In this document: in pieces, positions 11,654 through 63,873 of the stretch
Layout of the letters: each line of letters starts with the position of its first letter
Position numbering within the stretch: the first letter of the stretch is position 1
Origin: a virus
Length of the DNA: 64,000 bases
IMG/VR virus record: IMGVR_UViG_3300034105_001970
Direction: 5' to 3' (one strand)
Notes under the pieces: generated by a model
Told to the model about the DNA's origin: nothing
What the model saw: the letters and a program-made list of their open reading frames with translations, nothing else
Databases searched by the model: none
Translations under genes and position numbers: made by a program

Positions 11654-12415
11654 ATGAAAGGAATAAAGTTTTGGACAAAAGATGGTTTTGATGTTGCTAC
11701 CTGTAAATGGCGACTACACGAACGAGTTAATCAAAAATTTAATGGAAGTGGTTCAGACCAAAGTGGCAACTGCTGGTATACCTATAATGAATTAGGATAT
11801 AGAGGTGATTCTATTTACAAAGATGGATTTAGAATTATGAGTATTGGTGATTCACACACCGAAGGTGTTGGTGTTAACGATGAGGAAACATGGTCACATC
11901 AATTATGTAAACTTATACCGGGTGCAGTAGATTTGAATTTTGGATTTGGTGGTAGAAGTAATGACTATATTTTCAGATGTTTACAAACTTACTTTAAAAC
12001 AGCAAGACCACAATTAGTTAATATAATGTATACATATCCATCTCGAAAAGAATATTATACAGGTACTGGTGACTTAGAACCATTTCACGTTAATCCTTGG
12101 GGATATTTTTTAGAGGATGATTTGGGCAAAAAAGAGCATGCTGGTTTTTTAGAAATTACACAAGATGAAAATGATTTAATTAATTGGTATAAAAATCATC
12201 TATTGATTACATATTTTTGTAAATTAAATAATGTTCCTATGGTATGGAATGGTAGTTTCTTAAATGATACTACAATTAAGGAAGAAAATAGATTTGATGG
12301 TGATTATGACAATTTCATAGATAAATCGGCAGATATAAAACACGCTGGAGCAGAGCATAATAAAAAATATGCTAAAAAGTTGTATAATTTCTTAAAACAA
12401 AACGATGTCATTTAA
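11654..12415 (+). CDS. SGNH/GDSL-hydrolase-like paralogue
   Basis: IMSIGDSHTEGVGV block I and C-terminal GAEHNKKYAKKL. Confidence 0.35.
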   Translation: MKGIKFWTKDGFDVATCKWRLHERVNQKFNGSGSDQSGNCWYTYNELGYRGDSIYKDGFRIMSIGDSHTEGVGVNDEETWSHQLCKLIPGAVDLNFGFGGRSNDYIFRCLQTYFKTARPQLVNIMYTYPSRKEYYTGTGDLEPFHVNPWGYFLEDDLGKKEHAGFLEITQDENDLINWYKNHLLITYFCKLNNVPMVWNGSFLNDTTIKEENRFDGDYDNFIDKSADIKHAGAEHNKKYAKKLYNFLKQNDVI

Positions 12416-30127: not shown

Positions 30128-30245
30128 ATGTAACTCATTGATAGTCAGTCAAAAATCTTTGAAAAACCTAAAAATAGTTACTTTGGCCTGTTCAAAGTCC
30201 AATATAAAGTCGTATCTTTATGTATTGAGTCGAGAGAATGGGTAG
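30128..30245 (+). repeat. regulatory module, copy 1 (homologous to 38523-38625)
   Basis: About 110 bp shared with 38.5-kb copy; 41-nt core CAATATAAAGTCGTATCTTTATGTATTGAGTyGAGAGAATG differs at 1 position. Confidence 0.5.
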
Positions 30246-30426
30246 TCACATAGTAAAATTTTATAATATGAATAGTGTAACATTTCAGTTCAACATTGAA
30301 TTTGAATTTAAAGATGAATCTAAATTAGATAATCTGGCAAAACAATTACAAACAGTCTTAGATAGTTTTTCTATTGAAGATAGAAAGTTTGAAATAGTAT
30401 TTAAACATAATGAAGAAACTAAATAA
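30238..30426 (+). CDS. hypothetical small protein
   Basis: 62-aa ORF starting inside conserved module; followed by terminator. Confidence 0.3.
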   Translation: MGSHIVKFYNMNSVTFQFNIEFEFKDESKLDNLAKQLQTVLDSFSIEDRKFEIVFKHNEETK

Positions 30427-35488: not shown

Positions 35489-35854
35489 ATGAAAAAAATA
35501 TTTCCAAAGAAAGAAAGAGGACCAATGATGCTAATGGATAAGGTATTTACTATTGGTGTGTTCTCCGCAAATACACAACAATATGTATGCACCAAAGTGA
35601 CCGATTTAGGAAATGATGGGACATATAAAAAATATGGAGTTCATTTCAACTGGTTACCAACAACATTTGCAGTACCGGAAATAATGAGAATGGATATTAC
35701 ATTAAACAATGGAAGTAATCACATTGAAGTTCAGTTATTTGAAAAACGACCGAATGGTTCATATCTACCTTTATTCCATAAAGGATATGATAAGGAAAGA
35801 ATATCATCGGTAGTAAATATTCAAAGTATGCTTAACGATTTAATTAAAAGTTAA
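35489..35854 (+). CDS. hypothetical protein
   Basis: TAAGTTATG junction. Confidence 0.35.
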   Translation: MKKIFPKKERGPMMLMDKVFTIGVFSANTQQYVCTKVTDLGNDGTYKKYGVHFNWLPTTFAVPEIMRMDITLNNGSNHIEVQLFEKRPNGSYLPLFHKGYDKERISSVVNIQSMLNDLIKS

Positions 35855-36231
35855 TGAAAACAAAAACATATTTTAGTGAGTTCAAAAGTGATGTTGCAGT
35901 TGCAATACTAACCAAAGATGACTACCGATATGAAGTAATGAAACCACTATTTGAACAATGTGGTTTTGGTTTCGCTGAGACAAGTTCGGGTTGTGTATTC
36001 ATAGATGGTGAAGTGAAATTGACCAAAGATGAATTGTGGTGGGTAGAAGCACATGAAGTAGCACACATAATGTTGAAACACACAAAGGATAGAAACGAAA
36101 GTGATGAAGTTGCGGCTGATATGTATTCAATCATATTACTATTAGATAAAGGGTATAAGAAAGCAGCACAATTAGTAGAGGATAAATTTGAAGAAAGACA
36201 TAAAAGAAAATATTATGAAACTAACAATTAA
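35854..36231 (+). CDS. small HExxH-motif protein (ImmA/IrrE-like metallopeptidase candidate)
   Basis: WWVEAHEVAHIMLKH. Confidence 0.35.
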   Translation: MKTKTYFSEFKSDVAVAILTKDDYRYEVMKPLFEQCGFGFAETSSGCVFIDGEVKLTKDELWWVEAHEVAHIMLKHTKDRNESDEVAADMYSIILLLDKGYKKAAQLVEDKFEERHKRKYYETNN

Positions 36232-36544
36232 GAACTTTGAAAAACTATTCCGTAAACAATGGGATGATAAAAACTACATTGAAGATATTGATGAAAGGAG
36301 AGATGAATATAGAATTAATGTATGGCGAGGTAATATGAGACATATCATTATATTAAATAGAAGGCCGGTAGAACTTAACCCATCAGCTATATCGGATGGT
36401 TATTACACAATTGGAAAATGGAGTAACGAAGCATTTTGTGTAAGATATCCCTATTGGATAAAGCATGAGGACATAGTGAATATAAATAGTCTAATGAACA
36501 AACTTAAATTACTAACGGATGAATGGACACCTAAATTATTATAA
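36215..36544 (+). CDS. MLTIKN-family small protein (N-terminus MKLTIKNFEKL)
   Basis: Track ORF starts at TTG 36188; first ATG 36215 gives family N-terminus with one inserted Lys. Confidence 0.4.
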   Translation: MKLTIKNFEKLFRKQWDDKNYIEDIDERRDEYRINVWRGNMRHIIILNRRPVELNPSAISDGYYTIGKWSNEAFCVRYPYWIKHEDIVNINSLMNKLKLLTDEWTPKLL

Positions 36545-36547
36545 GTT

Positions 36548-36952
36548 ATGAATTACAATATAATACTAGCAATCGCAATGGTATGTTTACCTTACGAAAT
36601 GGAACGAGAGGAATTAAGAATCAACACAATGATTGAAACGATTACTCCCGAAATAGTGACACTAACCACATATAAAGCAAATGCAGCCGAAACGGATAGT
36701 ACACCAAATATAACTGCGAGTGGATTTAAGATTACTAATCCAAAGAAACATAGAATTATTGCAGTTAGTAGAGATTTAAAAAAGAAATATAAGTTTGGAC
36801 AAAAGATTAGAATTGTTGGTGCCGGCAAATATGATGGTACATATAGAGTTCACGATGTAATGAACAAACGATATACGAAACGAATTGATATATTAATTGG
36901 AGCAAACGATAAACAAACTAAATTAAGAAAAATTAAAATTTATAAAATATGA
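36548..36952 (+). CDS. 3D-domain (MltA/YuiC-like) protein with N-terminal signal anchor; candidate peptidoglycan hydrolase
   Basis: TTYKANAAETDSTPNITASG...RIIAV...KIRIVG...RVHDVM...RIDIL matches 3D-domain layout (TAY...ITASG...D.G...RIDLF). Confidence 0.4.
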   Translation: MNYNIILAIAMVCLPYEMEREELRINTMIETITPEIVTLTTYKANAAETDSTPNITASGFKITNPKKHRIIAVSRDLKKKYKFGQKIRIVGAGKYDGTYRVHDVMNKRYTKRIDILIGANDKQTKLRKIKIYKI

Positions 36953-37476
36953 AAAAGCCAGAAAACTTTCACAAAGTAGATAACGAAAAAATTAAATTTG
37001 GAAATACTGAAATTGAAATTGATGTATGTAAAGAGGGATTCTTTGTTCAGCAACGATACGATGGAAGTTGGAAAAATTGTGTATTGTTTGAAATGAATTG
37101 GGATAAAAACCAATACAATGTTAAAATATGTGCAATTGGTGATGGTATGGATGGTTGGTATATACATGAAGATATGCCTATCGTAAAAGATTCAATTCTA
37201 ACGATAGAACGATTTAAGGAATTTGTTATCGATAGTATGTATGATGTGGCAAATAAAGTTAATTTAGAAGTGGTACAACCTGATACAATGGGTATGACTG
37301 ATATGACGTTAACTGAAATTAAACATAGTGTAGCGAGTAGTTCAGGTCCTAATACAACATATGAAGTGACCGAAAATGTACTTGGAACTAGTGATTGGAG
37401 TTGTACTTGTCCTGCATATCAGTATAGTAAAGAAACACCACAAACTTGTAAACATATTAAACAACTTAAACCATAG
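36949..37476 (+). CDS. SWIM zinc-finger protein
   Basis: C-terminal WSCTCPAYQYSKETPQTCKHI. Confidence 0.4.
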   Translation: MKKPENFHKVDNEKIKFGNTEIEIDVCKEGFFVQQRYDGSWKNCVLFEMNWDKNQYNVKICAIGDGMDGWYIHEDMPIVKDSILTIERFKEFVIDSMYDVANKVNLEVVQPDTMGMTDMTLTEIKHSVASSSGPNTTYEVTENVLGTSDWSCTCPAYQYSKETPQTCKHIKQLKP

Positions 37477-38522: not shown

Positions 38523-38625
38523 GTAACTAGTTGATTCTCAATAAAAACTTTTAAAATTAGTTCACTTTGGGCATTGCCAATTCAATATAAAGTCGTATCT
38601 TTATGTATTGAGTTGAGAGAATGAC
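38523..38625 (+). repeat. regulatory module, copy 2 (homologous to 30128-30245)
   Basis: gTTGATTCTCAAT palindrome variant, TTCACTTTGGGC, then the 41-nt core with CGTATCTTTATG. Confidence 0.5.
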
Positions 38626-38652
38626 TACTCATATAATAAAAAATCATAATAT

Positions 38653-38991
38653 ATGCTAACACTAAATAATATAGAAAAATTAAAAAATACATACATTGGA
38701 AAATGGGAAGTCTTGGGAGTAGAAGTATGTGGTGCTAGTGAACATCACATAAACGCAGACCATTATAATATTCGTTTAAGTAGAAATAGTAATAGTAAAG
38801 ATAGTGTTGGTGCCGCTATTCAAATTGAAAGAAAAGCAGGGGAATTTGGTTATAATATTTGCGTATGTTATGAACACTATGATAAATTTATTTCAATTAC
38901 AGCATGGCCGAAAGATAGATTACTAGATAAAAAGAATTTCTTAGCTTCAATGCAAGGGATTTTAGATGCCGAATATGATAAACGTAAATAA
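38653..38991 (+). CDS. MLTIKN-family small protein (variant MLTLNNIEKL)
   Basis: Divergent N-terminal decapeptide; first gene after module copy 2. Confidence 0.4.
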   Translation: MLTLNNIEKLKNTYIGKWEVLGVEVCGASEHHINADHYNIRLSRNSNSKDSVGAAIQIERKAGEFGYNICVCYEHYDKFISITAWPKDRLLDKKNFLASMQGILDAEYDKRK

Positions 38992-55774: not shown

Positions 55775-56095
55775 ATGGAAACAAAAGCATTAAAAAAACT
55801 AAAAGAGGAATTAGAATATTGGAAATACTATGAATCAGTAAACAATATGGGTAAATGGTCTAAGCAAGTACGTGTGGATAAGTTAAAAGAACAAATCGAA
55901 AACTTAGAAACATTAACTGGATTTGCTGCACAATTTTATAGTGGTAGCGATGAAAATGAAAAGTTAATATTCACCGAAGGATTTGTAGAAGCAGTAAGGG
56001 TTATGGGTTCACTAGAACAAGATGAAGTTATTGAAAACGAAAGTGGTAGCTACGATGACTTATTTAATAAAAAAGGTATAGCACATAAAAACTAA
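55775..56095 (+). CDS. hypothetical protein
   Basis: 106-aa ORF. Confidence 0.35.
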   Translation: METKALKKLKEELEYWKYYESVNNMGKWSKQVRVDKLKEQIENLETLTGFAAQFYSGSDENEKLIFTEGFVEAVRVMGSLEQDEVIENESGSYDDLFNKKGIAHKN

Positions 56096-56176: not shown

Positions 56177-56530
56177 GTGAGAACAAAAAAAGTAAAACAA
56201 AGTAATATGAAAAAAGTAATAGCAATTTTATTAGTATCGTTATTGTGGGTATGCTTAGTAAATGCACAGTATCCAAATAGAGACACAATACATTACAATC
56301 AATTTAGAGATTTGGTTGAATGGCAAAGAGAACATTGGAAAAATAGAATTGAAAAGGAAACGAATGAACAATATCAAATGATTTATATTGATAGGGCAAT
56401 CATTGATAAAAAGAATAAAAAAATATATCTTTATAGTTCATACGATTTAGTATCGGGTGATGAACATGGTATTGGTATAAATTTATTTGTTAAACCAAAA
56501 AAGAAAAAAACTAAGTTATGGAAATTATAA
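56177..56530 (+). CDS. secreted small protein
   Basis: Signal peptide MKKVIAILLVSLLWVCLVNAQ (probable start 56207). Confidence 0.35.
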   Translation: MRTKKVKQSNMKKVIAILLVSLLWVCLVNAQYPNRDTIHYNQFRDLVEWQREHWKNRIEKETNEQYQMIYIDRAIIDKKNKKIYLYSSYDLVSGDEHGIGINLFVKPKKKKTKLWKL

Positions 56531-56823
56531 TAACACTAATTGTATTGATTATTGTATGGTGTGTTGCATTTATGGTAGGAATAAAACAAGGTACAAAACA
56601 ATTAACCAATCAAATTAAAAAAGATGGTGGGTATTTTGATATGGAAATTACAGGAGCAGTTTACCCGTATAAAACTAGTTCACTAAATGATGACACAATG
56701 GGCTCAATTGGTAGTAAACCAAAAACACAAACGGATTATGCGAGAGAACATAGTAAGGAATTTGAAGCAGAAGTTCGTAATGTGATTATAACAACATTAA
56801 AAGAAAAACATAAAAAGAAATAA
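56518..56823 (+). CDS. N-terminally anchored small protein
   Basis: TM helix IIITLIVLIIVWCVAFMVGIKQG; paralogous N-terminus with next gene. Confidence 0.35.
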   Translation: MEIIITLIVLIIVWCVAFMVGIKQGTKQLTNQIKKDGGYFDMEITGAVYPYKTSSLNDDTMGSIGSKPKTQTDYAREHSKEFEAEVRNVIITTLKEKHKKK

Positions 56824-56826
56824 ATT

Positions 56827-57114
56827 ATGATAGTATTATTAATTATGGCATTTATTATCGGTTGGTTAGTAGGTGCAAAGCAAGAACAAAAACGTTTATT
56901 GAATCCAAAAGTGTATGCACCTGAACCGGAAGTTGTAGAACATTTACAAAAGTTAGCGGGTATCAAAGAACATGATAGCACAAAGGGTGTAGAAATTTTA
57001 TCAGAAATTAATACTAATCTTAGTAAGAAAAAAGATGTTAATGGTAATAAATTACTAACTGAACTTTTAAATGCAGCCAACATTGAAACAAAATCGGATA
57101 ACGATAAAAAATAG
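56827..57114 (+). CDS. N-terminally anchored small protein
   Basis: TM helix IVLLIMAFIIGWLVGAKQE. Confidence 0.35.
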   Translation: MIVLLIMAFIIGWLVGAKQEQKRLLNPKVYAPEPEVVEHLQKLAGIKEHDSTKGVEILSEINTNLSKKKDVNGNKLLTELLNAANIETKSDNDKK

Positions 57115-57364
57115 TGAGAACATTGTATTATCAGATGTAGGGAATGGTTGGTCTATAAATAAAATTAGAAGTTCACTCAATCATTATCATATCAGTATAA
57201 ATAATCGTGGTTATAACTATTTTATATATTGTACTATAAGCCGCAAACCTACACCTATTGGATTGTTCATACTAACATATGGTACGGAGTATATGGCAAT
57301 AACAAAAGACCAACTAAAAAATATGCGATATGTAGTTAGGTGTATAAACGGATTGATATGCTAA
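57071..57364 (+). CDS. hypothetical protein
   Basis: 97-aa ORF overlapping neighbours; low support. Confidence 0.25.
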   Translation: MQPTLKQNRITIKNSENIVLSDVGNGWSINKIRSSLNHYHISINNRGYNYFIYCTISRKPTPIGLFILTYGTEYMAITKDQLKNMRYVVRCINGLIC

Positions 57365-57654
57365 CAATTAAGAATTATATTGAAATTGTAAATACAAAGA
57401 TTAGAGATACGACTGTATTTATCCATAATGTTGAGGAAACTGAAACTCAATATAGAATAGTAGTGGCTAATAACCATAACATTGGATTTGAAATGAGTTT
57501 AGAGCGGACACCAATTGGACGAGGTGACACGGCATTATATGAATTATGGTATTGGGATAAGAATGGAAATGTTCAACGAAGTTTATTAGCAAAGAATAAA
57601 ATCGATACAAAGCGGAAAATGATAAAACGAATTACCGAACTTATAATTAAATAG
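57358..57654 (+). CDS. MLTIKN-family small protein
   Basis: Track ORF starts at GTG 57340; ATG 57358 gives MLTIKNYIEIV. Confidence 0.45.
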   Translation: MLTIKNYIEIVNTKIRDTTVFIHNVEETETQYRIVVANNHNIGFEMSLERTPIGRGDTALYELWYWDKNGNVQRSLLAKNKIDTKRKMIKRITELIIK

Positions 57655-57655
57655 T

Positions 57656-57985
57656 ATGCTAACAATAAAGAATTATATAGGTAACCCAATGACAGAAAGT
57701 GATTTTTTCCTGTTTGAACGTTGCACCATATATGATGTAGAGGAAAAAAAATTGGTATATGAATTTAGAATAAGGGATAAGGATTGCATACCATTGTGTT
57801 CTATCTATTTAGCAAGAGAAGCTAATCCTGAGGGTAAGTATGGTATGTGGGGTATAATTAATAGTTACGTTTATAGGACAACAGAAACTCGTTATATAGA
57901 TAAGGTATTAATAAAGAATTGGAATTGGGTAGCAACTGATATGAATGCAATTATTCAAGATATATCAAAAATGAAATGGATATGA
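57656..57985 (+). CDS. MLTIKN-family small protein
   Basis: MLTIKNYIGNP. Confidence 0.45.
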   Translation: MLTIKNYIGNPMTESDFFLFERCTIYDVEEKKLVYEFRIRDKDCIPLCSIYLAREANPEGKYGMWGIINSYVYRTTETRYIDKVLIKNWNWVATDMNAIIQDISKMKWI

Positions 57986-58359
57986 ATGTACATGATTGTA
58001 TTAGATGCAACAATCCAATTAACTATGATGATACTGACTGGTGCGATGTATGTGATATGAGTGTGTTTGATGACCGAATGATAAAACAAAATAATATGCT
58101 AACAATAAAAAATCCGCAACAATTAATCGGACAAGAATATAGTGATTGGTTAAAAGTAATTGGTGCAAACGAGAATCAATATCATTATGAATTTACATTG
58201 GCTAATAAAGAAATGAGCCAAATAGAAACTTTCTTATTACATAGAAAGCAAACCGAAAATGGATGTTATATACTGGAATATAATGGTCACACATTATGGT
58301 TAAATAAAGATGAGTTTGACACAACGGATAAGATTATAATTTGTATGCAAACAATATAA
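57976..58359 (+). CDS. MLTIKN-family protein with optional 40-aa zinc-ribbon N-extension
   Basis: CIRCNNPINYDDTDWCDVC precedes an internal MLTIKNPQQL at ATG 58096; either start is possible. Confidence 0.4.
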   Translation: MDMNVHDCIRCNNPINYDDTDWCDVCDMSVFDDRMIKQNNMLTIKNPQQLIGQEYSDWLKVIGANENQYHYEFTLANKEMSQIETFLLHRKQTENGCYILEYNGHTLWLNKDEFDTTDKIIICMQTI

Positions 58360-58360
58360 T

Positions 58361-58393
58361 CAGCGGGAAGGGGCGGGGGTTGAGCGAAGGTCG
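58361..58393. other. GC-rich island (GGGAAGGGGCGGGGGTTGAGCGAAGGTCG)
   Basis: Stands out in roughly 30 percent GC DNA; homologous element at 61535-61564; followed by TTTTTTTTTGATAGT. Confidence 0.4.
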
Positions 58394-58409
58394 TTTAACC
58401 TAATTTTTT

Positions 58410-58441
58410 TTTGATAGTTTCATATATATTTCGTATCTTTA
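58410..58441 (+). promoter_or_regulatory. Bacteroidota-type promoter
   Basis: TTTG-N20-TATCTTTA. Confidence 0.5.
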
Positions 58442-58461
58442 AGTATAAACTAATTCATAGT

Positions 58462-58635
58462 ATGGCACTAAGAAAAATTCTAAGAGCAATGAAAGCATCA
58501 TTGATTGCAGAGCAAGCTAGAATACCTAAAACAATATTAGGTAATTTCATACATAGATTTAAAATACATTCTATGGAAGGTAGAATATCTAAAATAGAAA
58601 CCGAATTACTCAAACGAAAAACAAAGAAAGTATGA
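58462..58635 (+). CDS. hypothetical small protein
   Basis: Track ORF 58411 N-terminus (IFRIFKY) is the translated promoter; first ATG after the promoter is 58462. Confidence 0.3.
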   Translation: MALRKILRAMKASLIAEQARIPKTILGNFIHRFKIHSMEGRISKIETELLKRKTKKV

Positions 58636-59501
58636 ATTTAGGATATGCATGTATTAATATGAGTTTGGGTAAAAAGGTCACTACAAACCGAACAATGATT
58701 AAGAGAACTTTTTTAGAAAAGGGACTGGATTATGTATCGGATTGTGTTATACAAAATGTAGCGGACTTAGAACGGATTATAGAATGGAATGAGCAGAATG
58801 GTATTAAGATGTATCGTATGAGTTCCGATATGATGCCATGGGCTACTGAATATCAATTTGAACAATTAAAAGATTGGAATGAAATTGCAATCATACTAAA
58901 AAGATGTGGTGATAAAGCAACAAAGTATGGACAAAGATTATCATTTCATCCAGGTCCTTTTAATGTATTAGTTTCACCAAAAGAAGCGGTAGTACAAAAT
59001 ACAATAAATGATTTAGAAGTGCATGGTAGGTTGATGGATGCGATAGGATTATCTAAAACACCTTACAATAAAATCAATATACATTGTAACGGAGTGTATG
59101 GTGATAAGCAAAGTGCGATGGATAGGTTCATAGATAATTTTAAACTACTATCTGATTCAGTAAAGAGCAGATTAACAATTGAGAATGACGATAAGGCGAG
59201 TATGTATTCAGTTAAAGACTTAATGTATATTCACAATGCAATAAAGATACCTATTGTATTTGATTATCATCATCACACATTCAATACCGGAAATTTAAGT
59301 GAGCAAGATGCATTAGAGTTAGCTATGAGTACATGGCCGAAAGGTATAACACCGGCAGTTCACTATTCTGAAAGTAAGATGGGTAGTAAGCCACAGGCAC
59401 ATAGTGATTTCATTGAAAGGATTCCTGAAACATACGGCAACATAGTGGACATAATGGTAGAAGCAAAACAAAAAGATTTAGCAATAATAAAATTTATATA
59501 G
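58632..59501 (+). CDS. uvdE: UV DNA damage endonuclease UvdE
   Basis: Full-length collinear match to the UvdE family: LGYACIN, YRMSSDMMPWATE, SFHPGPFNVLVSPKE, INIHCNGVYGDK, LTIENDDK, IVFDYHHH, VEAKQKD. Confidence 0.9.
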   Translation: MNLGYACINMSLGKKVTTNRTMIKRTFLEKGLDYVSDCVIQNVADLERIIEWNEQNGIKMYRMSSDMMPWATEYQFEQLKDWNEIAIILKRCGDKATKYGQRLSFHPGPFNVLVSPKEAVVQNTINDLEVHGRLMDAIGLSKTPYNKINIHCNGVYGDKQSAMDRFIDNFKLLSDSVKSRLTIENDDKASMYSVKDLMYIHNAIKIPIVFDYHHHTFNTGNLSEQDALELAMSTWPKGITPAVHYSESKMGSKPQAHSDFIERIPETYGNIVDIMVEAKQKDLAIIKFI

Positions 59502-59502
59502 A

Positions 59503-59628
59503 ATGAAAACAATAGCAACGATAGCATTGATAGTAGAAATAGCATGTGTATTGACGGCAGTAGTATGGATAACAATACTATTGATTAAAGCATCAAAATT
59601 GATTAAAGCATCAAAATCGAAGAAATAA
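59503..59628 (+). CDS. tiny membrane protein (41 aa; not in track)
   Basis: TM helix; C-terminus encoded by 17-bp tandem duplication (LIKASK x2). Confidence 0.25.
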   Translation: MKTIATIALIVEIACVLTAVVWITILLIKASKLIKASKSKK

Positions 59629-59629
59629 A

Positions 59630-59842
59630 ATGAAAACAGCATTAGAAACACTATATGATAACTATGGTAACGGAATGGACGAACTATGGAGAAAATCAGA
59701 TGTAGGTGATTTAGATGATTGGCTTTATGATAATTGGTTAGTGGAAGACTCTACCGGAAAATTTAGAATATTAAAAATAGAAGAGTTTGATTATTTACTT
59801 AAAAATGATAATAACTTCGCAAATAAATGGAATAACATATGA
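59630..59842 (+). CDS. hypothetical small protein
   Basis: 70-aa ORF. Confidence 0.3.
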   Translation: MKTALETLYDNYGNGMDELWRKSDVGDLDDWLYDNWLVEDSTGKFRILKIEEFDYLLKNDNNFANKWNNI

Positions 59843-60039
59843 TAACAATAATAACAATATACATAATAGGATTTTTCTTAACACTAACATTTTTTAAATA
59901 CTTTGGACTGAAAATTGGATTTGATTATGATAATCGTAAAATGCAATGGGATTTATGGCTTATAAAGAATGGTAATGATCCAGGATATGAGAATATAATA
60001 CTAATAAAGGAGATAAAAGACTTCTACTATTTTAAATAA
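59839..60039 (+). CDS. small membrane protein, paralogue of 60639 gene
   Basis: IGFFLTLTFFKYFGLKIGFDYDNRKMQWD; about 85-bp near-identical DNA shared with 60676-60760. Confidence 0.35.
   Translation: MITIITIYIIGFFLTLTFFKYFGLKIGFDYDNRKMQWDLWLIKNGNDPGYENIILIKEIKDFYYFK
59866..59951 (+). repeat. about 86-bp direct repeat, copy 1
   Basis: 3 mismatches to 60676-60760. Confidence 0.6.
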
Positions 60040-60044
60040 GATAT

Positions 60045-60398
60045 ATGATACAGAAATACAAAAAGAAGCCAATAACAATAGAAGCTATTCAGTTTAAAGA
60101 AGAGAGTATACCTACCATAAAAGATTGGTTAGGTGAGAATCTATTAGCAGAAGCACACTACAGTTCTCCGATACATTGGATATACCGAATAAAGACCCTA
60201 GAGGGAAATATGCTGGTAACTGAAGGAGACTTTATAATCCGAGGAGTGAAGGGAGAGTTCTATCCATGTAAGCCGGATATCTTCTACGCTACCTACAATG
60301 GACCGGTTAAAGTGATATGGGACCACACCACAGGAGAATATGACCCTGAGTATCTTAAACAACAAGACAGTATTGAAAAGCAGTTAAACAATAAATAG
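60045..60398 (+). CDS. hypothetical protein
   Basis: 117-aa ORF. Confidence 0.35.
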   Translation: MIQKYKKKPITIEAIQFKEESIPTIKDWLGENLLAEAHYSSPIHWIYRIKTLEGNMLVTEGDFIIRGVKGEFYPCKPDIFYATYNGPVKVIWDHTTGEYDPEYLKQQDSIEKQLNNK

Positions 60399-60414
60399 AA
60401 AAACTATAAAATAT

Positions 60415-60633
60415 ATGACACCAAAAGAAAAAGCATTAGACTTAGTAGAGGATATGTTCAACTGTCCAGAAACGGGTTACAACGAACATAAAATCGAATG
60501 TGCATTAATAGCTGTAGATGAAGTTATAGAATTTATGGAAGCTGATGATTTTGATAGTGATACTTGTTATTGGGCAAATCATTCTCAAATGAAATATTGG
60601 ACGGAAGTAAAACAAGAAATAGAAAAACTTTAA
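60415..60633 (+). CDS. hypothetical small acidic protein (MTPKEK N-terminus)
   Basis: Shares MTPKEKxxxLV N-terminus with 62764 gene. Confidence 0.35.
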   Translation: MTPKEKALDLVEDMFNCPETGYNEHKIECALIAVDEVIEFMEADDFDSDTCYWANHSQMKYWTEVKQEIEKL

Positions 60634-60638
60634 AATAT

Positions 60639-60890
60639 ATGATAACAGGTTACTTAATAATGATAATATATCCAATAGGATTTTTCTTAACACTAACATT
60701 TTTCAAATACTTTGGAGTGAAAATTGGATTTGATTATGATAATCGTAAAATGGAATGGGATGACTGGGAAAGTAATGAACAAGCATTTACTGCATTCTCT
60801 ATATTTTGGCCGGTGATAATACCTATGATTTTAATAATTGGTATTTTCAAAATGATATTCAAATTTGGAAAATGGTATCTTAAAAAGTAA
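60639..60890 (+). CDS. small membrane protein, paralogue of 59839 gene
   Basis: Track ORF 60564 overlaps upstream gene; ATG 60639 gives MITGYLIMIIYPIGFFLTLTFFKYFGVKIGFDYDNRKMEWD. Confidence 0.35.
   Translation: MITGYLIMIIYPIGFFLTLTFFKYFGVKIGFDYDNRKMEWDDWESNEQAFTAFSIFWPVIIPMILIIGIFKMIFKFGKWYLKK
60676..60760 (+). repeat. about 86-bp direct repeat, copy 2
   Basis: See 59866-59951. Confidence 0.6.
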
Positions 60891-61028
60891 AATTGACTAT
60901 GAAAATAATATACATGCAAAGGACAATTGAAATGATTGTTAAAAATGAAATTGAATTGTCAGCAGATAGTTTACTCAATACAAAACCGACAAGAGTTGAA
61001 ACACACAAAGAACAAAACTATTTAGTAT

Positions 61029-61211
61029 ATGAATTGGTTTAATATATTATTTCCTGTGTTAAAAGATTTAGAAGATTTGATAGTGGATGGGCAGACAACA
61101 AGTTTAGATACAATTGTAAGTAATAACATAGAATTAGCAAAGGAGTTGGAAGGTAAACCACCAATGAATGCACAACAAATAAAAGAATATGTTAACAATA
61201 AAGAATTATAA
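61029..61211 (+). CDS. hypothetical small protein
   Basis: 60-aa ORF. Confidence 0.25.
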   Translation: MNWFNILFPVLKDLEDLIVDGQTTSLDTIVSNNIELAKELEGKPPMNAQQIKEYVNNKEL

Positions 61212-61530
61212 ACAATTAGAAGGTTGGGCACATAACTATAAAGATTTACGAATAGGTGAAATAGGTGAAAGTGCCGACAATTATATTTTTAGAGTTGCAT
61301 ATAATTCAATACCATACACTATAAAAATATTTAGAACAAAACTTATTACAAACGAATATGAAATGATATTGAGGGATGGGGCAGATATAACACAATTCGG
61401 CAGAGCATGGATAAAAAAAGAACAATTGGAAATAAATCTAATAACCAATTCGTTTGAAAAACTTATTGTAAGTAGTAAACCAAAAGCAAAAGGAATTAAC
61501 AACCCGTTTTATTCAAACGGCCCATTTTAA
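61189..61530 (+). CDS. MLTIKN-family small protein
   Basis: MLTIKNYKQLEG. Confidence 0.45.
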   Translation: MLTIKNYKQLEGWAHNYKDLRIGEIGESADNYIFRVAYNSIPYTIKIFRTKLITNEYEMILRDGADITQFGRAWIKKEQLEINLITNSFEKLIVSSKPKAKGINNPFYSNGPF

Positions 61531-61534
61531 TAAC

Positions 61535-61564
61535 AAAGGGGCGGGGGTTGGGGGCAAGTCGAAT
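61535..61564. other. GC-rich island (AAGGGGCGGGGGTTGGGGGCAAGTCG)
   Basis: Homologous to 58361-58393; followed by TTTTTTTGATAGT as in first copy. Confidence 0.4.
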
Positions 61565-61584
61565 TAGGAAATTTTTTTGATAGT

Positions 61585-61620
61585 AAGGGGATATGTAGTT
61601 AATACTTAATCCCTTTTTTA
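61585..61620 (+). terminator. probable intrinsic terminator
   Basis: AAGGGGAT ... ATCCCTTT stem with 16-nt loop then TTTTTTA. Confidence 0.4.
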
Positions 61621-61652
61621 TTTGGTAATATCAAATATTTGTCGTATATTAG
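61621..61652 (+). promoter_or_regulatory. Bacteroidota-type promoter
   Basis: TTTGGTAA-N20-TATATTAG (same -7 variant as promoter at 694). Confidence 0.45.
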
Positions 61653-61673
61653 AGTTAATAAATAAAAAAAGAT

Positions 61674-62375
61674 ATGGAAAATCCAAGAGATATTAAAATA
61701 GAAATAAAAGAACATCCTGGTTATTTTGTGGATGGTACGGGATTGATATGTTATAAAAAAAATAGTGGTTTTTTTTATTGTAAAAAGGCAGACAAACAAT
61801 CCGCTTTCATTTTACAAAACGGAAAACAAATTACAATAAGTGAGAGTGAGTTCGCAGATAAGTATGTTCCGGGTTGGAGGCAATATAGAAAATCAATTAG
61901 TGAACAAACGCCAACATTGGATTCTTTACATAAATATTTACAAACAATCATTGAAACCAACGCGGAGTTAAGTCAAAAGGTAAAATGGTTAAACGAATAT
62001 ACAAATAAGATATTGAATATTAAAAATACACCGATAGAAAAACCTATACAAAAAGTTAAATCAAAACCGACTAATTCAGTTATTAAATTGGATAAAAGGA
62101 GAAAACCAAATACATGGAAAGGTGAATTTGACAATAGTAAAGTTGAATTGCCTTTAATGACAAAAACAAAATCGGATATAAGTAAAGAGTTTGTAAAAAT
62201 AAAATTAGATATTAAAAAATCTTTGAAACAAAAAGGATATAGTGAAAAAGAAATCAAAGAATTTGAACCACATATTACTAGTGAAAGTTATTTCCATGCA
62301 TCCGCAAATAAGTGGGAGCAATTGATAGAAAAATATGGAATAGATAAGGCAAGTGAATTATGGAATAAATATTAA
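61674..62375 (+). CDS. hypothetical lysine-rich protein
   Basis: 233-aa ORF. Confidence 0.4.
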   Translation: MENPRDIKIEIKEHPGYFVDGTGLICYKKNSGFFYCKKADKQSAFILQNGKQITISESEFADKYVPGWRQYRKSISEQTPTLDSLHKYLQTIIETNAELSQKVKWLNEYTNKILNIKNTPIEKPIQKVKSKPTNSVIKLDKRRKPNTWKGEFDNSKVELPLMTKTKSDISKEFVKIKLDIKKSLKQKGYSEKEIKEFEPHITSESYFHASANKWEQLIEKYGIDKASELWNKY

Positions 62376-62395
62376 CAATATAAAACAATAATAAA

Positions 62396-62542
62396 ATGGA
62401 TAAGTTAAAAAGGATTTGGAATGTAGTATTAGTGCCAACGGCATTTTTCTTAGGAGCAATTAATATGTGGATAGGTGAAACGGCAGTAGGTTGCATGTTT
62501 ATTCTATTTGCGACAAACGAAACAATAAATAAAGATAAGTAA
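62396..62542 (+). CDS. tiny membrane protein (48 aa; not in track)
   Basis: ATG ORF with one TM helix filling the gap. Confidence 0.25.
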   Translation: MDKLKRIWNVVLVPTAFFLGAINMWIGETAVGCMFILFATNETINKDK

Positions 62543-62767
62543 GTGCACTACGAGATAGTAATACCAATTGGAATAGAGGATAACTATTTTAATATAGGAA
62601 TAGACTTTTGGTTGCAACATATAACTGCGACAAACAAAGTCACAAATCGGGATGAAGTAATAATAAATTTGAAAGTAATAGGTATTCAGTTAGACAATAG
62701 ATTAATAAAAGATTATAAGATAGTAAAAGAAAAGAGTTACACAATAATAAAAATAAAATCAGTATGA
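62543..62767 (+). CDS. hypothetical small protein (GTG start)
   Basis: No in-frame ATG near the start; weak. Confidence 0.25.
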   Translation: MHYEIVIPIGIEDNYFNIGIDFWLQHITATNKVTNRDEVIINLKVIGIQLDNRLIKDYKIVKEKSYTIIKIKSV

Positions 62768-62955
62768 CACCAAAAGAAAAGGTAGAGGAATTAGTAGGAG
62801 AATTTTATAAGATAACTACACATGACCAAAGGGCAATGGAATGTGCAATGGTTACAATTAAAGAGGTGTTAATGAAAGTTAGACATTGGGCACCAGAACA
62901 TACAATAGAGTTCTGGGAAGATTGCAAAAAAGAATTAGAAATTAAAATGAAATAA
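62764..62955 (+). CDS. hypothetical small protein (MTPKEK N-terminus)
   Basis: N-terminal MTPKEKVEELV shared with 60415 gene. Confidence 0.35.
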   Translation: MTPKEKVEELVGEFYKITTHDQRAMECAMVTIKEVLMKVRHWAPEHTIEFWEDCKKELEIKMK

Positions 62956-62956
62956 T

Positions 62957-63208
62957 ATGAAATTAGAATTTGGATTGAGTGTATTTAGTAAAAGAGAAAC
63001 ACTATTAGGTATTGAGTTAACGACGCACAACGGAATAGTGGCAAGTGAGGATGCGTTATATGAACAACGAGTAGTGGAGTTTAGTATTGGAATTTGCTTT
63101 GCGATATTCACAATAGGTTTCTTATCAAAGGGCGAAAAGTTAGATACGCCGGATATGGATAATCTACAAAGAGCAATGAAATCATTTGAAAGTGAAATGG
63201 ACAAGTAA
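62957..63208 (+). CDS. hypothetical small membrane protein
   Basis: 83-aa ORF, one hydrophobic helix. Confidence 0.3.
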   Translation: MKLEFGLSVFSKRETLLGIELTTHNGIVASEDALYEQRVVEFSIGICFAIFTIGFLSKGEKLDTPDMDNLQRAMKSFESEMDK

Positions 63209-63360
63209 ACCCGTTCACATCTAACGATTTCGAAAGTAAAGTAATAATAATTCAGCAAAGAATGTATGTAAAGCAAACCCTAATATATGTACTATGTATA
63301 ATGATAGTATACATGGTATGGTTAAGAGAGTATATAAAGAATAAAAGAAAATAAGTAAGT

Positions 63361-63510
63361 ATGAATAAGAAAACAATAATAGAAGCAGTAGGGTTTATCC
63401 TAATGGTAGTAACTATATTAACCTTATTATGTGTACTATATGAAGTGAATGAACTGAAGGGATTAATGAAGGATGCAAGTAATTTTAGAAGTATAACATA
63501 TCGAAAATAG
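63361..63510 (+). CDS. tiny membrane protein (49 aa; not in track)
   Basis: ATG ORF with TM helix in otherwise empty gap. Confidence 0.25.
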   Translation: MNKKTIIEAVGFILMVVTILTLLCVLYEVNELKGLMKDASNFRSITYRK

Positions 63511-63513
63511 AAT

Positions 63514-63873
63514 ATGCTAAACATAAAGAACATAAATAAAATCCTAAATATAGCAGTGGATATGGAATGGTATATAAGAGGTGTAAGTTTAATAGATGGT
63601 TACAATAGTATAACAAAAAGAGAACAACCTGAGTACCTTATAACCCTATGGAATACACTAACGAATACTGAAATGAATGTTTATTTGGAACGAGATAGTT
63701 TCTTAAATGATTTCTATGGGTTATATGTAATAAAGAATGGTAATAAGCAAGAACAATTATTGAGGATAGAATGGATTAAAGATATGGATAGATTTTTAAA
63801 GCATATAAGAGCACTTACAAATGAAACTAATGGTATTGTTAATAAACAAGGAGTGGTTAGGGGATGTAAATAG
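63514..63873 (+). CDS. MLTIKN-family small protein (variant MLNIKNINKIL)
   Basis: Shares the DNA/protein N-terminal signature with the family. Confidence 0.4.
   Translation: MLNIKNINKILNIAVDMEWYIRGVSLIDGYNSITKREQPEYLITLWNTLTNTEMNVYLERDSFLNDFYGLYVIKNGNKQEQLLRIEWIKDMDRFLKHIRALTNETNGIVNKQGVVRGCK

Follow-up and report, generated by a model that had tools for sequence, protein, structure and literature searches.

Introduction

In T4-type phages, hyperplastic regions are clusters of small dispensable open reading frames (ORFs) that lie between conserved genes and hold promoter-early stem-loop (PeSL) cassettes, in which sigma-70-like early promoters are combined with stem-loop terminators and which are abundant in these regions (PMC2839356, PMC4122927). 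In this article, we describe a comparable region in a 64,000-nt stretch of phage DNA from IMG/VR, IMGVR_UViG_3300034105_001970 (the window), at positions 57,340-63,873. Prominent among its genes are those whose products begin with the hexapeptide MLTIKN or a variant of it, here termed the tag of the MLT family. As in the T4-type regions, clusters of small ORFs without annotated function lie between conserved genes, near-identical phages differ by insertion, deletion, and replacement, and a short conserved intergenic motif (here, a G-rich element) stands at exchange points. We are confident, at the level of description, that here an uncultivated large phage carries a hyperplastic region of accessory genes, in which an ancient family of small proteins is combined with turnover of gene cassettes.

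Other viruses offer further points of comparison. The internal proteins of T4 join a conserved N-terminal capsid-targeting sequence to variable bodies and are encoded at a polymorphic locus; their targeting peptide ends in a prohead-protease site ((L/I)xE) and precedes bodies that are unrelated to one another. MLT proteins are likewise small, encoded at a polymorphic locus, and strongly conserved at the extreme N-terminus but variable elsewhere, yet their bodies are homologous and their N-terminus belongs to the predicted fold; because the tag consensus lacks a conserved Glu and hence the protease-site motif, and because the bodies are homologous, we rejected their assignment to the T4-type capsid-targeting-sequence proteins. 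The multigene families of African swine fever virus and the host-range families of poxviruses occupy variable regions of large DNA viruses. They share with the MLT family tandem, divergent paralogs, strain-specific repertoires, a location outside the core, and a presumed interaction with the host, and differ in that the MLT proteins belong to a phage and are much smaller single domains with putative targets.

The MLT Family

The original prediction, made from the letters of the window, counted five MLTIKN genes in the region, and we recover all five, with starts at 57358, 57656, 58096, 61189, and 63514 (the last reads MLNIKN). On the + strand, they encode MLT1 (57358-57654, 98 aa), MLT2 (57656-57985, 109 aa, present in some strains and absent from others), MLT3 (domain from 58096, within an ORF at 57982-58359 that begins with an in-frame CxxC...CxxC module of ~38 aa, termed Cys4), MLT4 (61189-61530, 113 aa), and MLT5 (63514-63873). 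A family profile built from seven obvious copies raised the count to ten members in the window, adding 36215, 38653, and a degenerate member with RITIKN at 57101. This degenerate gene (57071-57364, +), whose ORF starts upstream and overlaps the preceding gene, matches profile positions 3-94 and scores 44.5 bits with the tag removed, against a decoy maximum of 10.4, so that four adjacent family copies stand in tandem at 57071-58359. All six genes of the region align with positions 2-95 of the profile at E=2e-18 to 4e-26. The members outside the region (36215, 37480, 38149, and 38653) form a first cluster, two of whose genes lack the exact tag: 36215-36544 begins MKLTIKN, with its start one codon upstream, and 38653-38991 begins MLTLNN. 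A 121-aa ORF near this cluster (35489-35854) contains EVQLFEKRPNGSYLPLF, which resembles the L-x-R...G-x-Y-x-L core of the family without the tag, and may be a remote relative, judging from this motif.

The original prediction took these genes to be conserved N-terminal tags with new C-terminal domains attached. When tag-less paralogs are compared in pairs with phmmer, similarity is mostly non-significant and falls below detection, and leave-out profiles are therefore required. In these, the tag was cut from the profile and from the targets, and all sequences that BLAST could link to the target were excluded from the profile. All ten window paralogs were still found, at 24-61 bits, against 9-16 bits for the best of 1000 shuffled decoys. 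An alignment of 149 sequences places near-invariant residues in the tag (L2, I4, and N6) and in the body (Y32, R50, and Y61) alike, and yields the tag consensus M-L-T-I-x-N-h-x-K-L.

An AlphaFold2 model of MLT1, with a predicted local distance difference test (pLDDT) score of 94.7 and a predicted template-modeling score of 0.85, consists of an ordered N-terminal segment followed by a short helix, a sheet of five antiparallel strands, and a helix at the C-terminus, and the tag itself has a pLDDT of ~94. The Cys4-MLT3 protein, modeled from an alignment of MLT3 orthologs only (pLDDT 80.5), shows the same order of elements, with the tag (MLTI) as a beta-strand. In family proteins that are extended at the N-terminus, the motif is internal and has no Met. 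Alignments and models together show the MLTIKN genes to be full-length copies of one single-domain family, with the tag integral to the predicted fold. The dominant component of the region is very probably a set of ancient, highly diversified proteins of ~90-120 aa in which M-L-[TK]-I-x-N is part of a single alpha+beta domain, with the tag as a structurally conserved part of that domain and not a detachable signal.

The family is large and diverse. A search of 1.84 billion proteins gave 376 matches at the 90%-identity level and 167 clusters at 50% identity; nearly all are 87-120 aa long and align end to end. Profile searches of related loci of 12-20 kb, which we label together with other related phage contigs as L001-L047, found 4-19 members in each, with 19 in ~9 kb of L002. 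Taken from 17 loci, 118 family genes fall into 43 subfamilies at 45% identity, and their assortment and order differ from genome to genome. Since the best identity between paralogs of one genome is 38%, the family is old. A DNA comparison of 57-64 kb with 36-39 kb finds similarity confined to the ~22-bp sequence that codes for the tag, which, together with the low paralog identity, argues for old paralogy rather than recent amplification. On these sequence comparisons, we read the MLT cluster as old paralogy with birth-and-death and reassortment, each genome holding its own assortment of old subfamilies.

The Cys4 segment is the case in which a module does appear to move. This segment (CIRCNN...CDVCD; 57982-58095 in the window, 7866-7979 in L001) lacks a stop codon and in every case continues into an MLT gene, with the junction exactly at the Met of the tag. 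In L001, whose anchor genes are 94-97% identical, the module is joined in frame to another paralog, and MLT3 lies downstream of the UV-damage endonuclease gene uvdE. Database proteins of 125 aa with the Cys4-MLT3 fusion exist, and in the AlphaFold2 model the segment forms short beta-hairpins with a pLDDT of 64-72. The idea of conserved tags with exchanged domains thus survives in a modified form for the Cys4 fusions and, as described below, unmodified for a pair of membrane proteins; it fails for the MLTIKN genes, whose bodies are homologous, with Y32, R50, and Y61 and the predicted fold in common.

Gain, Loss, and Replacement between Strains

We compared the window with 16 IMG/VR loci as more distant relatives and with near-identical contigs of 95-100% identity. 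The 16 loci share the backbone g01...g04...MLT3-UvdE-g18-MLT4-g25-g22-g26-g27, and the slots between anchors hold 0-6 genes, so that distances between anchors range over 0-1392 bp (UvdE-g18), 40-1125 bp (MLT3-UvdE), and 13-1427 bp (MLT4-g25). The most readily identified anchor is UvdE (58632-59501, +; PF03851, E=3e-64; 217 bits against a Pfam gathering cut-off of 24), which is 72-95% identical across loci and is preceded by g10 (58462-58635, +), a 57-aa ORF with orthologs upstream of UvdE in L001.

Among near-identical contigs, single genes and cassettes come and go with precise ends. MLT2 is exactly absent from L018 and L021 (57658 joined to 57970), with a junction at TATG| that runs from start codon to start codon, and its ortholog occupies another position of the array in L002 and L003. 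MTPKEK-b (62764-62955, +), named for its N-terminus, is absent from L046 (62734 joined to 62926). A cassette of 809 bp (59953-60761, +), which contains the tail of the membrane-protein gene TMa, g15, MTPKEK-a (g16), the 5' part of TMb, and the right copy of a 106-bp direct repeat, is missing from L020, L021, L022, L045, and L047 (99.2-99.9% identity), which carry a single hybrid TM (transmembrane) gene of 80 aa instead, and is present in L042-L044. The g21 cassette (61585-62372, +), with a hairpin and T-run (~61586-61625) and a 233-aa ORF (61674-62375), is inserted relative to L013 and L047 and starts exactly after the GATAGT that ends the second G-rich element; L047, 99.2% identical upstream, departs from the window exactly past this GATAGT. 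In L013, the segment with g27, a 49-aa TM protein, and MLT5 (63364-63868, +) is swapped for another MLT subfamily between flanks that are 86-98% identical. The junctions of all strain indels keep ORFs intact. Upstream of the region, L018 and L021 match the window at 95-96% identity on either side of 55775-56043 but carry non-alignable sequence there in place of part of g01.

These differences bear out the hotspot of module shuffling, gain, and loss that was first proposed: MLT2, MTPKEK-b, and the 809-bp and g21 cassettes vary among near-identical strains, and the slots vary among distant ones. Relatives with full synteny, which would speak against such a hotspot, did not turn up; conserved anchors enclose variable slots throughout. 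The proposed duplication holds in part, since most of it is ancient (no paralogs of one genome exceed 38% identity), the 106-bp repeat and an 18-bp tandem repeat being the only recent cases. Repertoires change through insertions, deletions, and replacements of cassette size; these end at start codons (with TATG microhomology), at short direct repeats, at the conserved sequence that encodes the tag at the 5' end of the genes, and where the G-rich element has its 3' end.

The clearest recent duplication involves TMa (59839-60039, +), a chimeric membrane protein of 66 aa, and TMb (60639-60890, +), a two-helix membrane protein of 83 aa. The first ~40 aa of TMa correspond to TMb and the tail differs, the two proteins (MITxI...FFLTLTFFKYFG) being 84% identical over 37 aa. 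The ~86 bp of near-identical DNA reported for this pair extend to 88 bp at 96.6%, or to 106 bp at 92% between the left (59847-59952, +) and right (60656-60761) copies of the direct repeat, followed by abrupt divergence. More distant loci (L001, L002, L004, and L015) have single full-length TMb orthologs, from which we conclude that TMb represents the ancestral full-length form and the duplicated state of the window is derived, as far as gene content tells. The tail of TMa (LWLIKNGNDPGYENIILIKEIKDFYYF; 59953-60039) shares 12/27 identities with MLT5 residues 70-94 (63721-63800; E=0.003; 31 nt at 77%), and a comparison of the tail with the MLT family profile was not significant; TMa may be a chimera of the 5' end of TMb and the 3' end of an MLT gene.

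The MTPKEK pair had also been listed among the N-terminally matched genes, and the match is confirmed, with 29% identity over 70 aa at E=3e-10, but it extends beyond a tag: MTPKEK-a (60415-60633, +) and MTPKEK-b match phrog_21441 over its full length (E=3.2e-9, covering residues 1-72 with a profile of 75 positions, and E=4.5e-6), and the genes are full-length paralogs. MTPKEK-a lies between direct repeats of 33-53 bp (60371-60423 and 60595-60647), next to g15 (60045-60398, +), whose 117-aa product belongs to the widespread phage family phrog_419 and whose GC content is raised, up to 47%. The tandem duplication predicted inside the ORF at 59503-59628 (+), which encodes a TM protein of 41 aa without known relatives, is present, with a unit of 18 bp and not 17 bp. 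Its 2.1 perfect, in-frame copies (59580-59617) duplicate LIKASK, and the gene is restricted to near-identical strains, every one of which has the duplication.

A G-Rich Intergenic Element

The two GC-rich islands that were noted at the outset lie at 58364-58393 and 61539-61568; they are the top two 30-mers by GC content in the region and the first and third in the window, and they share the 15-mer AAGGGGCGGGGGTTG exactly (chance expectation, 0.19 matches). With these, every feature listed in the original prediction is accounted for, and chance explains none of them. Both are copies of a lineage-specific G-rich element (GGGGCGGGGGTTGGGGG...TTTTTTTGATAGT). Copy 1 (58361-58418, +) reads GGGAAGGGGCGGGGGTTGAGCG..GTCG..T9GATAGT, and copy 2 (61534-61584, +) ends in GATAGT at 61579-61584. 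The consensus consists of GGGGCGGGGG(T/C)TG(GGGG/AGCG), a variable stretch, GTCG, A/T-rich bases, and T6-9GATAGT. In all instances, the element is intergenic and on the + strand, and it is found once or twice in each of the related loci. When 2.9 million viral contigs were scanned for the exact pattern, only 19 matches emerged, all beside MLT genes and one or two per contig; the contigs with the element include some of 117-251 kb. GATAGT directly abuts an MLT start codon in five loci and is elsewhere separated from it by 19-25 nt or by an inserted cassette. The 3' end of copy 2 is the breakpoint relative to both L013 and L047, and the invariant 3' end of the element behaves, from the sequences compared, as a recurrent recombination joint.

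In this respect the element is analogous to the PeSLs of T4-type phages, since it lies at the boundaries of indels and replacements, exactly after GATAGT in the two comparisons above. We place it outside the PeSL class: its sequence is unrelated, a stem-loop terminator is not a conserved part of it (16 instances), it has no consensus hairpin, it occurs only once or twice per contig, and many breakpoints of the region lie at start codons or other direct repeats.

The element would be a regulatory joint, a promoter or leader or a signal of the G-quadruplex type, that heads runs of MLT genes and doubles as a recombination joint. TTGATA and weak -10-like hexamers follow it (58411 and 61577). Searches that bear on this role gave no clear signal: RNAalifold found no consensus pairs in the 16 instances, sigma-70-like sites show no excess (60 against 57.7 in shuffles), and for TAnnTTTG, the -7 box of Bacteroidetes, neither strand is favored. 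An intrinsic terminator or structured RNA was rejected as a general explanation of the element, which has no consensus structure, though copy 1, alone among the copies, has a hairpin plus T-run with it. Separately, a GC-stemmed hairpin followed by a T-run (AAGGGGAT...ATCCCTTTTTTATTT) lies at 61586-61625, directly after copy 2 and before g21, and a similar hairpin follows the G-rich element of L014 (~12315-12350).

A bolder form of this proposal would make the element the promoter or leader (or a G-quadruplex/R-loop signal) of an expression slot heading the MLT array, in which recombination at GATAGT|ATG and at the tag-coding sequence ATGCTAACAATA swaps the paralog. If true, the mechanism would be the phage counterpart of cassette or expression-site switching and would account for the odd codons of the tag and for the differing subfamilies that stand directly after the element in different genomes. 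We regard it as rather improbable.

Alternative Explanations

The conservation of the tag could be explained in other ways than by a role within a domain. MLTIKN might be a portable N-terminal signal for targeting, packaging, or leader function that is shuffled onto unrelated C-terminal domains, and the hexapeptide is indeed far better conserved than the remainder, most tag-less bodies have no detectable pairwise similarity, the 5' ends hold 21-24 bp at 91-96% DNA identity in front of diverged sequence, and the Cys4 junction falls exactly at the tag Met with different bodies in the window and in L001. Tag-less profiles nevertheless retrieve all paralogs far above the decoys, Y32, R50, and Y61 are conserved in the body, the fold agrees between two alignments, the tag is ordered in both models, the motif of extended proteins is internal and Met-less, and no (L/I)xE cleavage motif is found in the tag, so that a portable signal is largely refuted by this analysis and very unlikely. 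The tag could also be conserved chiefly at the level of nucleotides or RNA, with ATGCTAACAATA as a shared cis element (a translational operator or a joint for recombination or gene conversion) and the peptide secondary. Codon choice in the tag, far from genome usage, makes such a constraint possible and weighs against a purely structural role: with genes weighted by subfamily, CTA encodes Leu2 in 63% but makes up only 9% of Leu codons across the genome, ACA is used in 84% against 50%, ATA in 85% against 44%, and C at +4 is found in 1% of 74 other genes. Recombination junctions exactly at the tag ATG point the same way. Selection on the peptide is indicated, on the other side, by synonymous variants that are common in the tag codons (TTA/TTG/CTT for Leu, AAT/AAC for Asn, AAA/AAG for Lys), with I4 and N6 invariant as amino acids across differing codons, and the alternating L/I hydrophobic pattern and the structure model suit a role in the protein. 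As the chief cause, a nucleotide-level element is unlikely in our view; as an added constraint, it is possible and can coexist with a tag that is part of the fold. Avoidance of GTTAAC was considered as a cause of the CTA preference and rejected: the palindrome is depleted, yet the CTA:TTA ratio is independent of whether codon 3 starts with AC (32:15) or not (13:6). The depletion itself is about three-fold in the whole window (7 observed, 19.9 +/- 3.9 expected) and could reflect restriction avoidance.

For the turnover of the region, the tandem arrangement of the four adjacent copies at 57071-58359 and a copy number of 4-19 per locus would also be expected from a recent accordion-like amplification, in which an arms race keeps one gene duplicating in tandem. 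Such a process should leave similar neighbors, and the opposite is found: paralogs within a genome are at most 38% identical, their DNA similarity stops at the ~20-bp tag, near-identical adjacent copies were not seen in 17 loci, and each window paralog is closer to orthologs in other phages than to paralogs in its own genome. We consider recent amplification highly improbable and retain old paralogy with reassortment. Still less do we believe that the repeats and indels are artefacts of metagenome assembly, with chimeric joins at repeats. L017, L018, and L019 break off within or at the 106-bp repeat, which shows that assemblers struggle there, but independent assemblies from different samples and pipelines (JGI and ENA) span the junctions for either allele (cassette present in L042-L044, absent from L020-L022, L045, and L047), and ORFs are intact at the junctions.

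Possible Roles of the MLT Proteins

We propose, tentatively and as a possibility short of an even chance, that the MLT proteins are dispensable, individually variable protein-binding factors directed at targets of the host or of competitors, in host take-over or counter-defence. Annotation lends this no help, and the following results count against it: the MLT paralogs, all of which were scanned, have no match in Pfam or PHROG, a sequence-profile search of the PDB with the family found no match, and a Foldseek search of the family model against the PDB and BFVD returned nothing significant. Literature searches for 'MLTIKN' and on multigene families found no papers on the former and nothing relevant on the latter. 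Class I chaperones of type III secretion (CesT/SycH-like) are dimers with an alpha-beta3-alpha-beta2-alpha topology, and the predicted MLT structure resembles them, and the alpha+beta sandwich of actin-capping protein, at the fold level only. Membership in this chaperone class was rejected, for there is no sequence similarity, no significant Foldseek match, and no central helix.

Genome Context

The window has a GC content of ~30%, all its sizeable ORFs are on the + strand, and the cumulative GC skew climbs steadily. A megablast search of the region against 50,697 phage records gave no match, and a 714-aa protein of the window has its only counterparts in an uncultured 484-kb phage and in a Microcystis phage, both at 34% identity. 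Identifiable genes include two glycosyltransferases, an AAA ATPase, a DNA ligase, and UvdE, and the majority of proteins have no family assignment; tRNA and Rfam scans of the window found no match. Across the window, gene starts (n=74) are A-rich from -16 to -5 with 4-12% G and no Shine-Dalgarno signal, and have T at -1 in 64% and A or G at +4 in 91%, a pattern typical of hosts with Shine-Dalgarno-independent initiation, such as Bacteroidota. One homolog was binned with a metagenome-assembled genome of Flavobacteriaceae, and a search of GTDB genomes for MLT3 relatives in hosts or prophages found none.

Further observations concern other parts of the window. Just upstream of the region, adjacent small membrane proteins (56518-56823 and 56827-57114) share an N-terminal TM helix and 'VG(I/A)KQ' (10/26 identities, E=0.004) and match one gene in L009; they may be another N-terminally matched pair. 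The DNA that follows the 3' end of the window, represented by L042/L043 4975-5100, is ~76% similar to window positions 30160-30276 and 38541-38652, and these two intergenic stretches of ~115 bp each point to an additional dispersed repeat in the genome. The neighbors of the first MLT cluster (35854-36231, 36548-36952, and 36949-37476), judged by eye only, are a small protein with HEVAH (HExxH), a protein with a 3D/RlpA-like domain, and a SWIM-like CxC...CxH protein.

Implications

In this analysis, we have defined a previously undescribed phage protein family that comprises 167 clusters at 50% identity, reaches up to 19 tandem copies per genome, and has a confidently predicted fold and no annotation. 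For phage strains of 95-99.9% identity, the region also provides examples, at base-pair resolution, of small accessory genes being gained, lost, and re-joined. An attractive but wrong reading is corrected along the way, in that what stands out as a conserved N-terminal 'tag' can simply be that strand of an old domain which is conserved best. If the G-rich element does act as a joint, it would constitute a second, sequence-unrelated case of motif-guided modular shuffling beside the PeSLs of T4, and if the MLT proteins are factors of host interaction or counter-defence, the family would offer a wealth of new inhibitors.

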